The position numbers and the translations under genes were made by a program. Positions 8,041-28,179 of a stretch of 28,556 nt of DNA are shown here, piece after piece. The notes under the pieces were generated by a model that saw only the letters and a program-made list of their open reading frames with translations, ran no database searches and was not told the DNA's origin. Within the stretch, counting starts at the first letter, position 1. Every line of letters begins with the position of its first letter. Origin of the DNA: Thermodesulfovibrionales bacterium (GTDB lineage Bacteria > Nitrospirota > Thermodesulfovibrionia > Thermodesulfovibrionales > UBA6898); contig JBIOIY010000041.1 in assembly GCA_044450345.1 (NCBI GenBank), positions 1 through 28,556 on the forward strand, written 5' to 3'.

Positions 8041-8211
8041 ACCTTCCCTTTCATTCAGTAACATAGCTTCGCTAATAATAAAACGGCACGGTTTATTTTT
8101 GCAATGGTACATGTCCAAAAAAGGCTTGCCCTCTCTAATAATTTAATGCTATCCTTTGTTGGGGATTATCAGCAGGAACCCCTTATCGTGTCGAGGCAAG
8201 AAAGGGACCTA

Positions 8212-9745
8212 ATGCTCTCTAAGGTATTGAGCGCGAGCGTCATAGGGATCGAAGCATACAAAGTCGAGGTTGAGGTAGACATCTCTTCCCGAGGACTTCC
8301 TCATTTCTCAATGGTCGGGCTGCCCGACGCAGCAGTGAAAGAAAGCCGTGACCGGGTAAGGGCGGCCCTGAAAAATATCGGCTTCAACTTCCCGCTAAAA
8401 CAGATCACCGTCAACCGTGCCCCGGCCGATCTCAAGAAAGAGGGCTCGGCATTCGACCTTCCGATTGCGGTCGGCATCATATGCTCCGAGGGACTGATAG
8501 AACAAGAAGCGATCAGCGGATATCTGTTCACAGGTGAACTTTCACTCGATGGGAGGATAAAGCCTGTCAGGGGCGCCTTGTCGATGGCGCTCAAGGTCAG
8601 AGGGGCGGGACTGAGAGGGATAATACTGCCTTCTGAAAATGCACCTGAGGCTGCAGTTGTCAACGGTGTAAACGTTTACGGCATCAGTAGCCTTCCGGAA
8701 GTCGTAGATTTCCTGCGAGGGGCAAAGGATTGTTCGCCTTACGCGATAGACATCCCCGAAAAAATGAAGGTTTTATCGGTCTATGAAGATGATTTCTCCG
8801 AGGTTAAGGGGCAGGAACATGCAAAGAGGGCTCTTGAGGTATCTGCTGCAGGCGGGCACAACGTGCTTATGGTCGGTCCTCCAAGGTTCAGGGAAGACAA
8901 TGCTTGCAAAACGCCTGGCGACCATCTTGCCGGGCATGACATTCGATGAGGCCTTGGAAACAACCCGTATCCATAGTGTCGCAGGCCTGCTCAGAGACGA
9001 CCAGCCTCTCCTTGCTACAAGACCGTTCCGCTCCCCCCATCATACAATTTCAGACGTCGCACTGATAGGGGGCGGACAGACACCGAAACCCGGTGAGGTA
9101 AGCCTTGCCCATAATGGATTGCTCTTCCTCGATGAAATTCCTGAGTTTAAGAGAAATGTCCTCGAGGTCCTGAGACAACCGATAGAAAACGGAGAAGTCA
9201 CTGTGTCACGCGCAGTCGCATCCGTTACATACCCCGCATCGTTTATGCTCGTAAGCGCTATGAACCCCTGTTTCTGTGGATTCTTCTCGGATCCACGACA
9301 CCAGTGCACATGTACGCCCGGTCAAATTTACCGATATCGCAGGAGAGTTTCAGGCCCGTTACTCGACAGGATTGACATCCATATTGAGGTCCCGGCAGTT
9401 CCCTATAAAGAATTGTCGACTGACTATGTGGGAGAGAAGTCGGAAGACATAAGAAAAAGGGTCGTCGCGGCGAGAGACATCCAGCTCGAAAGATTCAAGG
9501 GAGATAAGATCTACTGCAATGGCCAGATGAAGACCCGGCACATAAAGAAGTTTTGCAGGCTGAAGGAAGATGCCCAAAATCTTCTTGAAACGGCAATGCA
9601 TAAACTCGGGTTATCGGCGAGGGCGTATGCGAGGATTCTGAAACTTTCGCGCACCATAGCGGATTTGGAATCGTCGACTGACATCCAGTCGAATCATATC
9701 TCGGAGGCGATACAATACAGGACGCTGGATAGAGGGCAGTATTAG
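8212..9745 (+). pseudogene. comM: ComM/YifB Mg-chelatase-like AAA+ ATPase with a +1 frameshift in Walker A
   Basis: The N-terminal part ([34 protein letters not shown]) and the C-terminal part ([37 protein letters not shown]) are in different frames. An extra A at 8883/8884 splits GPP-GSGKT. Confidence 0.9.
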
Positions 9746-23590: not shown

Positions 23591-23989
23591 TTATCGAAAC
23601 CGGGGCAGCAGGCTCTTAAGTCTCCACGATTTGACTCCGCCCTCATCGATATAAACCCATTTCTGGTTATCCGTTACCTTGGCAACGAGGCCCGAGGTCA
23701 GGACATAATAGCTGAAGGTAACCACTGCTGAGGCCTCCAGGGCTTTTTCATCATACTTCACATCTATGACCTGATAATCGGTTATCCTGATATTTCCAGC
23801 AGCCTTGGCGCGCTCCCTAAACTCTTCGCTGATAGAGGCAGCAGAAAAGACGGCCGCACGGTCAAGGTCCCCCCATCGGACCAGTTGATTGTATTTTTCG
23901 AGGCTCATATCGAAGGCATCCCGTGACTGGGCAGTGGCACAGGAGAGGAGGCTTGTTGCAATGAGTAACAAAAAAAGCAGGTTCCGCAT
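23591..23989 (-). CDS. Hypothetical lipoprotein
   Basis: MRNLLFLLLIATSLLS-C lipobox. SD GGGAGG. Confidence 0.82.
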   Translation of the reverse strand: MRNLLFLLLIATSLLSCATAQSRDAFDMSLEKYNQLVRWGDLDRAAVFSAASISEEFRERAKAAGNIRITDYQVIDVKYDEKALEASAVVTFSYYVLTSGLVAKVTDNQKWVYIDEGGVKSWRLKSLLPRFR

Positions 23990-24137
23990 TATCTTCCTCC
24001 CGAAGTATCGTGTATAGCTACTTTGCCTATAGTATGAAAGAAAGGGGGAAATAGCAAGTGGGAACTTATTGCTTTTTTTCGATTTAGCAACTTACGTCCC
24101 GCCATTACATTTCCCAAAGGAGTATAATTAAGGGGAG

Positions 24138-24485
24138 GTGAACAGCGCTGTGAAATGTCCTCATTGCGGCAAAGGGACGAAGGACGGGAAGACATGTGAC
24201 AACTGCGGAAGGGACCTGGCGCCTTCACAGGGGATGGAAGTCCAATATAAGGATTTCAAGGTCTCGGAACTGCTTGATATAAAGGTAGGTCACCGGTTCC
24301 CAGCCGGGGAGGGCGTCGAAGAAGAGGAATCCGGACACGAGACAGAAAGAGAAATGAAGAAGAATCCCTCATCCGGAAAGCGAGCTGTCGGGAAGAAAAG
24401 ATTGAGATTGGTGATGACCGCTGTCACCTTTGTTCTCGTCGCAATCGCCGTATTCTTTCTTCTGAAATTTTTTACGAATTTCTAA
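24138..24485 (+). CDS. Hypothetical zinc-ribbon protein with C-terminal membrane anchor
   Basis: CPHC-x9-CDNC, an acidic/basic linker and a C-terminal hydrophobic helix. G-rich SD before the GTG. Confidence 0.75.
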   Translation: MNSAVKCPHCGKGTKDGKTCDNCGRDLAPSQGMEVQYKDFKVSELLDIKVGHRFPAGEGVEEEESGHETEREMKKNPSSGKRAVGKKRLRLVMTAVTFVLVAIAVFFLLKFFTNF

Positions 24486-24558
24486 AACGCTTATTTTGCA
24501 TCTTTCGCAACTAATACCTTACGATTCTCGATTACGCCTCGCTATATTATTTGCGCGA

Positions 24559-24588
24559 TTGATTCCCCTCGGGTTATTATGATATTCT
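24559..24588 (+). promoter_or_regulatory. Candidate sigma-70 promoter for thrC
   Basis: TTGATT-18 bp-TATTCT with extended TGn. Confidence 0.45.
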
Positions 24589-24701
24589 GAATTGGTGCGT
24601 GAGGAGTCTCGTTATTTCGAGGAATCTTCATGAAATTCCCTCATGTGCAGCCGACCGCAAGAGGTCGCGAAGAAGAATACAAAAAACCAAAGGTGAAGCC
24701 C

Positions 24702-26048
24702 ATGCCATATCGAGCCTGCTTCCAGTGCATCAACGAACAGTGTAAGGCGCAATATCCTCTGAACTCGATCATCTACCGTTGTAAGGCCTGTGGGTCTCTT
24801 CTGGAGGTTCAGCACGATCTCAAGGCGCTCTCCCGCCGCGACGCCAAGGCGTGGATGAAACTGTTTGAGGACCGATATAAGTCCACCCAGTGGCCATACG
24901 GCTCAGGTGTGTGGGGCAAAAAGGAATGGATCCTGCCCCAGATCAACAACGACAATATCGTTTCGCTGTATGAGGGCGGTACCAACCTGTTCTGGGCCGA
25001 AAGGTTCGGGAAAATGCTCGGGCTGGAAAATCTCTGGCTCAAGCTCTGCGGGAACTCTCACAGCGGTTCGTTCAAAGACCTCGGTATGACAGTGCTCGTA
25101 TCGCAAGTCAAACAGATGATCAGCGAGGGCGCGCCCATTCAGGCGGTGGCCTGCGCATCAACCGGCGACACCTCTGCTGCGCTGGCGGTTTACTGTGCCG
25201 CAGCCGGCATCCAGTCGATTGTGCTCCTGCCCAAGGGCAAGATCTCGATAGCACAGCTCGTTCAGCCCATTGCCAACGGCGCACTGGTATTGTCGCTGGA
25301 TACGGACTTCGACGGCTGCATGAGGGTCGTTCAGGAGATCACCAAGGACGAGACAATATACCTGGCCAATTCCATGAACTCCTTGCGCATCGAAGGACAG
25401 AAGACCGTCGGGATAGAGATCGCCCAGCAGTTCGACTGGGAGATCCCCGACGTGATCATCATCCCGGGCGGTAACCTCGGCAACGTTTCAGCACTTGGAA
25501 GCGGCCTGCTTATGATGCGCGATCTCGGCCTGATTGCTAACCTGCCGAGGATCGTTGTGGCCCAGGCAGAGAACGCCAACCCGCTTTACCGCTCCTATCT
25601 GAAGAACTTTGAGCGCTTTGAGCCGATCGAGGCGAAAAAGACACTGGCGAGCGCGATACAGATCGGAAATCCGGTCAGCGTTCAAAAGGCTATCCGTACG
25701 CTGAAGCAGTTCAATGGAATCGTCGCTGACGCCTCCGAGCAGGAATTAGCGGACGCGGCCGCCCTCGGTGACACTACAGGCATGTTCAACTGCCCGCATA
25801 CTGGGGTAGCGCTTGCGGCCCTGATAAAGCTGCTCAAGGCCGGCAAGATAGATAAGTCGGAGCACGTCGTGGTGATCTCCACGGCACACGGGCTAAAGTT
25901 CACCGATTTCAAGGTCAACTATCACGAGGAGAAGCTCGACTTCCCCTGCCGCTTCGCCAATAAACCGATCGAGTTGCCGCCGAGTGTCGATGCGGTCAAG
26001 GAAGCGCTCAAGCGCGCATTGCAAAAGAGGAGAGAACCGAATGTCTAA
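24702..26048 (+). CDS. thrC: Threonine synthase, plant-like subgroup
   Basis: PLP Lys in [48 protein letters not shown] and STAHGLKF. Start placed at ATG 24702 (SD AAGGTG). ATG 24630 is an alternative. Confidence 0.95.
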
Positions 26049-27249
26049 GACCCCGTCAGATCCTAAAAAATGGCATCCCGCCACCCTCGCGATCCACGGC
26101 CTCGGCCGGCTTCCAAAGGCCCATCACGCCGTGTCCACGCCGATCATGCATACTTCCAATTACTACTTCGACACCGCAGACGAGGTTGAAGATTTCATGC
26201 GTGCCAAGGGCGCGGGCCGGGTGACCCGTGAACATGAATATGCGCGCTATGGCAATCCGACCCAACAGGAGACCGAACGCAAGCTTGCCGCAATCGAAGG
26301 CTCTGAGCGTGCCGTACTCTATTCCTCGGGGATGGCGGCAGTACTGCTTGTGATTATGACCTTCATGAAGCGCGAGGGGCACATCATCTTCACGGGCGAC
26401 TGCTACCGCCAGACGCGCGATTTTGCCACCAACTTCCTCGGGAAGTTCGGCATCGAATACTCGATTGTAGACCCCACTGCCGAGGCTATCGAGAAGGCGG
26501 TCACGCCTCACACAAACATTATTTTCACCGAGTCGCCGACCAACCCGTACCTGCGCGTGCTCGACATCCCGGCCATCGTGAAGGTGGCAAAGAAGCGTAA
26601 TATCCTGACCATAATCGACGCCACATTGGCAACGCCCTATAACATCAAACCCATCGAACTTGGCGTAGACATCGTGCTCCACTCGGCCACCAAGTACTTT
26701 GGAGGCCATAACGACCTCATGGCAGGCGTTGCCCTCGGGTCGACGCCCCTGATGACCGACCTTTACAAGATGCAACGCATGATCGGCGCAACGCCGGGAC
26801 CTTTGACATGCTTCCTGCTCGAACGTGGACTCAAGACCTTTGGGATGCGCATGGAGCACCACAACAAGGCCGGACTCGAAATCGCCCGTATGTTGGAAGA
26901 TCACCCAAAGATAGAAAAGGTATGGTACCCGGCGCTTCCGTCGCATCCGGACTATACTATCGCCAAGGAACAGATGAAGGGCTTCGGCAGTGTCATCAGT
27001 TTCCTGATCAAGGGCGACAACGCGGCGACGCGGAAATTCATCGACGCCCTCGAACTCTTCCTGATCACGCCAAGTCTCGGAGGAAGCGAGAGCCTGGTCA
27101 CCCAGATGTGGGCTATGTCCTTCTTTGACTACCCGGAGGAATATCGCAGAAACATCGGCATGGTAGACAACCTGGTCAGGCTCGCACTCGGCCTGGAGGA
27201 CGTAGACGATCTCATAGCAGATCTGCAGCAGGCGCTGGACACGATATAG
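26041..27249 (+). CDS. metB: Cystathionine gamma-synthase-like PLP enzyme (Cys/Met metabolism family), plant-like
   Basis: [32 protein letters not shown] (PLP Lys), SLGGSESL and [11 protein letters not shown] 26041 follows SD GAGGAG and overlaps the thrC stop by 8 nt. Confidence 0.85.
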
Positions 27250-27788: not shown

Positions 27789-28004
27789 TTATGCGGCCCT
27801 TCGTCTCTGCCGGGGCTTAGGCTTCGCACGTTCTTCTTTTTCGACAACTCTGACCCCAAGATCTTCAAGACGCATCAATAAATGCTCTAGTTCCTGGAGA
27901 GGGAAGTGGTCTTCGGGGAACGCATCGTCCAGTTCATTGAAAAAGAGAACGCCCCTTTTCCTCCCCAGTTCCAGCAGTGCATCCTCAATATCCTTTCCTT
28001 TCAT
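27789..28004 (-). CDS. Stand-alone sigma-70 region 1.1 domain protein
   Basis: LLELGRKRGVLFFNELDDAFPED..P.QELEHLLMRLEDLGVRVVE follows the region 1.1 pattern (L...GK.QG.LTY.EVND.LP.D.....IE.I...L.DMGI.V.E). SD GGAGG 5 nt before ATG 28004. Confidence 0.8.
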   Translation of the reverse strand: MKGKDIEDALLELGRKRGVLFFNELDDAFPEDHFPLQELEHLLMRLEDLGVRVVEKEERAKPKPRQRRRAA

Positions 28005-28179
28005 AACAACCTCCTCGGCATCCACCAAATCCACGCGCAAGGTTATTTTAATTTCATTCCCTCTTTGAGATAATTGTACCGCTTTTGCAAATTATCCACC
28101 ATAACAAAAATCATCAGGACGGTAGTAGCAAAAGACATACGTATGAGGTTCAGCCCAAGATTAACCCCTGTAAGTGTCG

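Follow-up and report, generated by a model that had tools for sequence, protein, structure and literature searches.

The stretch of DNA analysed here, contig C41 of a 3.19-Mb genome (G000; 86 contigs, 91% complete), is 28,556 nucleotides (nt) long and is hereafter called the window. The source is an anaerobe of peat and soil from the phylum Nitrospirota, with Candidatus Sulfobium, Thermodesulfovibrio and Thermodesulfovibrionales genome bins as the named close homologues. The window carries a two-gene operon that encodes a plant-type threonine synthase (TS), ThrC, and a pyridoxal phosphate (PLP)-dependent enzyme of cysteine and methionine metabolism that resembles cystathionine gamma-synthase (CGS). 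In teaching, the partition of O-phosphohomoserine (OPH) into threonine and methionine synthesis is presented as a peculiarity of plants. On balance, we consider it likely that these two genes constitute a self-contained OPH branch-point module whose CGS-like enzyme favours sulfide. In this module HomK would provide OPH, which the plant-type ThrC would consume as the working threonine synthase, and the CGS-like enzyme would exchange the phosphate of OPH for sulfur and thereby start methionine synthesis. The sulfur donor would most likely be sulfide, yielding homocysteine directly, and less likely cysteine, yielding cystathionine. The conserved overlap of the two genes and a ribosome-binding site inside thrC would couple the translation of both enzymes, and in some relatives a one-base change of frame would have fused them into one polypeptide.

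Conservation of the gene pair

The thrC gene extends from 24702 to 26048 on the forward strand (ATG at 24702, 448 amino acids, P0001), and the CGS-like gene from 26041 to 27249 on the same strand (ATG at 26041, 402 amino acids, P0002). A Shine-Dalgarno-like AAGGTGA (24690-24696, +) is located 5 nt ahead of the thrC start codon, and the ribosome-binding site of the CGS-like gene, GAGGAG (26027-26032, +), lies within the 3′-end of thrC, eight bases before the ATG at 26041. The 8-nt overlap ATGTCTAA (26041-26048, +) comprises the start of the CGS-like gene and the stop codon of thrC (TAA, 26046-26048), and both open reading frames (ORFs) are as described in the initial annotation. A second in-frame ATG is present upstream of the thrC start at 24630; the orthologues align from residue 1 of the form that starts at 24702.

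The pairing is likewise found in other genomes. Among 43 related loci, all taken from species-representative genomes, 41 have thrC upstream of the CGS gene, and the other two begin inside the CGS gene. The 8-nt overlap is kept in 36 of the 41 loci, and the remaining ones show overlaps of 11, 12, 7, 1 and -48 nt, where the values of 7 and -48 nt belong to assemblies with a broken frame. Fusion of the two genes occurs in none of the 41. Moreover, most of these junctions contain a AGAGGAGA-type motif at the position of GAGGAG.

The distribution was followed in a phylum sample of 121 genomes, including 20 of family f13 and 8 of family f6, and in a separate f13 sample of 31 genomes. Plant-type ThrC was present in 23 of the 121 genomes, namely G000, all 20 f13 genomes (in one of them cut by the contig end) and two of the eight f6 genomes. 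The CGS-like orthologue was equally present in 23, comprising G000, 19 of the 20 f13 genomes, the two f6 genomes with plant-type ThrC and, as the CGS-like gene alone, G068. Both genes occur together in 22 genomes, and in all 22 they are adjacent, with thrC directly upstream on the same strand and the genes either overlapping or at most 237 nt apart.

Searching for longer proteins yielded 78 homologues, 62 of which (797-857 amino acids, 83-91% identical) contain both the ThrC and the CGS Pfam domains. Both signature motifs are present in 57 of the homologues, and an 848-amino-acid form comprising ThrC and CGS is found among the metagenomic fused protein clusters. At the join, residues 1-446 of ThrC are followed by Met1 of CGS, an arrangement that would be obtainable by a one-base frame change. 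Because the overlap is kept in the great majority of loci and fused forms exist, coupled 1:1 expression is plausible, in line with the translational coupling proposed in the initial annotation.

In addition, two more distant ThrC-CGS fusions of metagenomic origin, P0360 and P0361, were observed, with ThrC parts that are 73% and 56% identical, respectively. The pairing therefore reaches beyond the close Nitrospirota group.

A plant-type threonine synthase

Judged by its sequence, P0001 belongs with the plant-type threonine synthases. It scores 219 bits against the thrC model TIGR00260 (cut-off 167). With Arabidopsis thaliana threonine synthase 1 (PDB 1e5x, 2c2b, 2c2g), the SAM (S-adenosylmethionine)-activated plant enzyme, it aligns over nearly its full length (564.6 bits with 1e5x, residues 16-440), as compared to 202.3 bits for the best bacterial structure, and the threonine synthases of Closterium, Musa and Haematococcus are 56-62% identical to it. 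In the ThrC tree, calculated carefully with 19 rows of the 24 chosen, the Nitrospirota proteins, three metagenomic proteins and the eukaryote TS of Closterium, Musa and Haematococcus form one clade (support 86/98), which is separate from the short bacterial ThrC and from a MetM-like branch including P0124, a ThrC paralogue of the same genome. The plant-like character that the initial annotation ascribed to ThrC is thus borne out, and the motifs it named are visible in the Arabidopsis alignment.

P0001 and the Arabidopsis enzyme share the SFKDLG motif with the PLP lysine, K125 in P0001, which is invariant across 22 orthologues, as well as the N-terminal region. Residues 41-130 of P0001, corresponding in the alignment to the N-terminal portion of the eukaryote TS, are 60-67% identical to three of these enzymes (54-60 of 90 residues), matching the conservation of the core, and contain eight residues (the WPYGSG stretch) without counterpart in the aligned P0124. 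In plants the N-terminal domain of TS carries the SAM response, and control by SAM would be conceivable for the bacterial enzyme. In contrast to the Arabidopsis enzyme, P0001 has no transit peptide and instead starts with a zinc-ribbon-like motif of four cysteines (C9, C14, C27 and C30), which is invariant across the 22 orthologues. This motif of the bacterial plant-type TS is missing from the aligned eukaryote enzymes.

The CGS-like enzyme and its putative phosphate pocket

P0002 is a member of PF01053 (433.7 bits) that remains below every NCBIfam cut-off. Its best solved relative is the OPH-dependent CGS of Nicotiana tabacum (PDB 1qgn, 1i41), with 351.4 bits for 1i41 and 303.5 bits for the next structure, and the two proteins have the PLP lysine and the carboxylate-binding arginine in common. 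In the CGS tree, likewise calculated carefully and comprising 34 rows, P0002 falls into a 99/99 clade of 26 rows that also holds CGS of the green lineage, by name a Micromonas cluster and a plant, whereas E. coli MetB and P0123, a paralogue from the same genome, are placed outside. The branching order within this clade is not settled, and the approximately unbiased (AU) test gives a p-AU of 0.477 for a sister relation to the green lineage. This places P0002 in the plant subfamily but neither establishes nor refutes that it is the sister of the plant enzymes.

The identity to plant and green-algal CGS amounts to only 42-44%, and among 1.84 billion cluster representatives no full-length relative of P0002 above 45% identity was found outside its own group. 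Cluster look-ups gave names for 4 of 20 representatives, which were the Micromonas cluster, a plant, a Paenibacillus and one labelled only 'cystathionine gamma-synthase'; ESM Atlas look-ups returned generic family neighbours only. Furthermore, P0002 aligns from tobacco residue 59 onwards and is devoid of the N-terminal regulatory extension of plant CGS. The long CGS representatives have 531-544 amino acids, and P0139, one of them, is named as a plant CGS.

For the substrate pocket, the numbering was anchored on tobacco Y163 and K261 as given in PMC8428831. Residues Y122, D193, K218 and R380 of the CGS-like enzyme are invariant in the orthologues aligned, and Gln124 of P0002 aligns with Lys165 of tobacco CGS. 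At this position a lysine is found in the plant, an arginine in four green-lineage representatives and a glycine in E. coli MetB. We take the exposed Lys165 of tobacco CGS to be the residue that fixes the phosphate of OPH. Steegborn et al. are said to have noted in 1999 that the phosphate-fixing lysine of plant CGS is a glycine in bacterial CGS. The arginine and the Thr-Arg pair that flank the position are common to the P0002 group and plants, and the distant fused proteins P0360 and P0361 contain the algal-like DSYRRTRQF with an arginine in place of the lysine.

E. coli MetB, the O-succinylhomoserine-dependent CGS, and the sulfhydrylases MetY and MetZ share the fold, PF01053 and the gamma-replacement chemistry with P0002. 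However, the motif that follows the stacking tyrosine reads Y-R-Q-T-R in P0002 and Y-G-G-S-Y in MetB, P0002 belongs to another clade, and no MetA or MetX partner was found in its genome. Thus, P0002 lacks the phosphate lysine that defines plant CGS, but its pocket is still unlike that of MetB. With regard to the initial annotation, which had described the second enzyme as plant CGS-like, the kinship holds at the level of the subfamily and of the best solved relative, but neither the lysine nor a sister relation to plants goes with it. Likewise, three of the named motifs (among them EY.RYGNPT and DCYR.TR.F) are shared, but TPI..TS.YYF and the C-terminal motif match only in part.

Homoserine, threonine and methionine genes

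The initial annotation suggested that this organism may make methionine from OPH without a homoserine acyltransferase. In G000 we observed neither MetA nor HcyBio, and the best MetX score was 18 bits, which was not counted as found. Classical ThrB, for which the initial annotation had proposed a check, reached only 31 bits and was likewise not counted; instead, the OPH-forming HomK (TIGR02535) is present with 565 bits. GapMind 2026 reports that an E. coli mutant in thrB can be complemented by a HomK. The second PF01053 enzyme of this genome is the paralogue P0123 (G000:C3:21895-23043).

A further cluster on contig C1 (G000:C1:54339-60301) contains the ThrC-like P0124, a ThiS-family carrier, a NIL-domain protein, HomK, an aspartate kinase and a citramalate-synthase-like gene. 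P0124 is located on a long branch of the ThrC tree and adjoins the carrier (PF02597, 60.6 bits), which bears Gly-Gly at residues 89-90 followed by a 15-residue tail that implies a maturation protease. Carrier and HomK are separated by the NIL-domain protein (65.1 bits). Part of this cluster (C1:58483-60301) looks like the thiocarboxylate-based MetM/MetO conversion of OPH to homocysteine with an NIL partner, and by the content of the cluster P0124 is a candidate MetM. The MetM/MetO route is described for Streptomyces albulus (MetM, UniProt A0A059WBP2; Hasebe et al. 2024, as cited in GapMind 2026 and PMC12172450). GapMind 2026 also assigns a Mec enzyme belonging to this route to Dissulfurispira thermophila, a prototrophic member of the Nitrospirota. 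MetM/MetO likewise is a bacterial system that employs OPH in place of an acyl-homoserine. However, it relies on an unrelated enzyme family, a ThrC paralogue together with a ThiS-like carrier, whereas the operon needs no carrier protein.

P0124 was also considered as the housekeeping ThrC and set aside, as relatives keep a separate short ThrC beside it; this 'second ThrC' is probably not a threonine synthase. In G114, G013 and G094 the order of the cluster is MetM-like gene, ThiS, short ThrC (approximately 355-375 amino acids) and HomK, so that the short ThrC stands between the carrier/NIL genes and HomK. At this spot the short ThrC is missing in G000 and G057, both of which carry the operon. 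This loss argues that the plant-type enzyme is the working threonine synthase, and the plant-type ThrC appears to have displaced the housekeeping ThrC in these two genomes.

In family f13 the plant-type ThrC is the sole ThrC-family match in 15 of the 20 genomes, and a MetM-like gene is found in 91 of the 121 genomes of the phylum sample but in only 4 of the 20 of f13. In f13 the operon thus would replace the MetM/MetO-type route rather than accompany it. The f13 sample of 31 genomes contains no MetA, no HcyBio, MetX-like genes in three and HomK in 28 genomes; in G050 and G122 MetX adjoins its own MetY-like gene, not the CGS-like gene. A comparison of coordinates in nine f13 genomes showed no PF01053 match other than the CGS-like gene (E ≤ 1e-40), and approximately one third of the f13 genomes sampled possess a second one of the P0123 type. 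Seven f13 genomes that are 96-100% complete (G087, G024, G111, G042, G015, G091 and G033) encode HomK and the CGS-like enzyme as the sole PF01053 match, and neither MetA nor MetX, HcyBio or a MetM-like gene was found in any of them.

Discussion

We favour direct sulfhydrylation of OPH, raised in passing in the initial annotation, because in these seven genomes OPH is the only activated homoserine seen and the CGS-like enzyme the only sulfur-adding candidate, and because they hold no second PF01053 enzyme that could split cystathionine (beta-lyases of other folds were outside the search). On this evidence it appears as the better-supported variant. Correspondingly, in f13, the family from which the module seems to come, the module seems to be the only recognisable route to homocysteine.

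Several observations weigh against an OPH branch-point module of this kind. The position of the phosphate-fixing lysine is occupied by glutamine in all nine Nitrospirota orthologues aligned, and the highest NCBIfam scores of P0002, though below the cut-offs, are those for methionine gamma-lyase and cystathionine gamma-lyase. Grouping P0002 with E. coli MetB lowers the log-likelihood by 20.7, which does not amount to a formal rejection in the AU test (p 0.070). G068 contains the CGS-like gene without a plant-type ThrC. The genes missing from G000, the source of the window, have to be read against its completeness of 91%. Moreover, the C1 cluster provides this genome with a second candidate OPH route, so that the operon would not be its sole path to homocysteine and its methionine arm may be redundant beside the MetM/MetO-like genes. 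The proposal of an acyltransferase-free methionine synthesis from OPH is therefore upheld with regard to the missing acyltransferases and HcyBio and the presence of HomK, but it is qualified by the glutamine and by the second candidate route. Finally, neither MetH (PF02574) nor MetE (PF01717) was found in G000, and both families are missing in six of seven same-order genomes and in five of seven f13 genomes sampled. Some methionine synthases must escape the PF02574 and PF01717 models, because the prototroph Methanosarcina acetivorans was also silent in both control searches; an unrecognised methionine synthase is more likely than auxotrophy in these lineages.

Other activities of the CGS-like enzyme have to be weighed against the use of OPH and sulfide. 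In a true plant-style transsulfuration, OPH and cysteine would form cystathionine, from which a separate beta-lyase, in G000 possibly P0123, would free homocysteine. The closeness to tobacco CGS speaks for such a reaction, as do the second PF01053 enzyme of G000 and the P0123-type matches in part of f13. We nevertheless regard it as unlikely, for in the nine f13 genomes with the CGS-like gene as their only PF01053 match there is no beta-lyase of that family (the PatB/MalY type was not searched for), and P0123 has no linkage to the operon and reaches no NCBIfam cut-off. It is quite improbable that P0002 has a non-biosynthetic role as cystathionine gamma-lyase, methionine gamma-lyase or homocysteine desulfhydrase, with the link to thrC serving, for instance, the supply of 2-oxobutanoate. 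The top NCBIfam scores (346.9 bits for methionine gamma-lyase and 338.3 bits for cystathionine gamma-lyase/homocysteine desulfhydrase) and the lack of a recognised methionine synthase would fit a lyase, but these scores lie far under the respective cut-offs of 549.7 and 594. A lyase would also leave the strict adjacency, the overlap and the fusion with an OPH-using enzyme unexplained and the seven near-complete genomes without any homocysteine route, and a citramalate synthase-like gene, named from sequence only, is already there for 2-oxobutanoate.

An ordinary enzyme of the MetB/MetZ type, acting on an O-acyl-homoserine from an unrecognised acyltransferase, would account for the missing phosphate-binding lysine, and the AU test leaves room for kinship with MetB. 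We deem this highly improbable, as in the f13 sample MetA is lacking throughout and MetX-like genes are rare, neither was found in G000, and MetX, in the two genomes mentioned above, stands beside a MetY-like gene of its own. In addition, the lysine position is framed by Arg-x-Thr-Arg as in plants, a pattern that E. coli MetB does not have.

Beyond the branch-point module with a sulfide-favouring enzyme, we raise a more far-reaching possibility, which at present is doubtful. The pair may be a laterally mobile device for threonine and methionine, encoded in one operon or one protein, that replaces both the housekeeping ThrC and a carrier-dependent homocysteine synthase. With the TS half switched on by SAM as in plants, the coupled or fused enzymes would serve as a valve for the flux of OPH, and the other half would be an OPH sulfhydrylase; the branch point of plants could have been put together from a bacterial ancestor of this sort. 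Because these lineages show no MetH or MetE, the CGS-like half may also take methanethiol and convert OPH to methionine.

Within the titles and abstract openings covered, no description of a bacterial operon of plant-type TS and CGS was found, and these enzymes are likewise not mentioned in the Sulfobium paper or in two of its three supplements. A 2026 preprint names plants and the Streptomyces MetM as users of OPH, and MetM/MetO, published in 2024, is the only bacterial route from OPH to homocysteine that we found in print, as far as the accessible portions of these sources go. If the proposed module operates as outlined, it would add a second bacterial OPH route, one that needs no carrier and combines the two enzyme types of plants, and it would account for homocysteine in seven near-complete genomes that have no other recognisable route. 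It would likewise provide an annotation rule for a gene that is now labelled CGS, beta-lyase or 'PLP-dependent transferase', and the natural fused and unfused forms would offer material on the question whether a SAM-gated competition at the branch point predates plants.

Origin and occurrence

The operon ThrC is 83-90% identical to f13 proteins and 76-79% identical to those of the two same-order genomes that hold one. For the core gene P0124 the order is reversed, with 76-83% identity within the order and 64-69% to f13, and for the transaldolase encoded on contig C41 the values are 70-73% to same-order genomes and 63-67% to f13. The GC fraction of the operon is 0.565 as compared to 0.506. The CGS half is 87% identical to its counterpart in G057 and 75-78% to those of other f13 genomes. 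These comparisons suggest lateral transfer between an f13-like lineage and the lineage of G000, less clearly so for the CGS half. Mis-binning of the contig was considered and rejected: by tetranucleotide distance it takes rank 53 among 78 contigs, its GC content equals that of the genome, and the transaldolase is closer to the same order.

Parts of the stretch are contained in 20 sequencing runs, which come from 11 studies on peat, soil and freshwater sediment; six of the runs hold at least half of its words. Among four runs examined, two DNA runs each contain a single contig that covers both genes completely. These independent contigs, from peat and soil, measure 4458 and 7423 nt and show 36 and 45 differences. 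The operon is common in Nitrospirota of peat, soil and sediment. In one soil metatranscriptome, contigs of 414 and 251 nt lie inside the CGS-like gene at approximately 96% identity, and only pieces of 36-51 nt fall on thrC and nothing crosses the thrC-CGS junction. These contigs are a weak hint at expression of the CGS-like gene in a relative and provide no evidence for a joint transcript.

Flanking genes and further observations

No gene of amino-acid synthesis flanks the operon, whose neighbours encode signalling proteins, a transaldolase and a member of the glyoxalase family. Rfam showed no family at gathering score in the window or the C1 locus and none up to E = 1 in the region 23950-24800; no riboswitch or leader RNA of a known type was seen upstream of the operon. 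Scans for promoters and terminators returned 3 and 3 sites, respectively, as compared to 3.0 and 3.5 expected.

In G068 the region of approximately 700 nt upstream of the CGS-like gene (contig C70, locus L065, 2107-3318) is without a listed ORF of at least 90 amino acids and includes a small ORF on the opposite strand. In the window, a ComM/Mg-chelatase-like gene is split into two overlapping frames (8104-8949 and 8783-9745), and the split at 8104-9745 may reflect a frameshift or an assembly error. In addition, an ORF of 83 amino acids on the reverse strand (27789-28040) has sigma-70 region 1.1 as its sole match (41.9 bits); if it is not a stand-alone fragment, it belongs to a broken rpoD.

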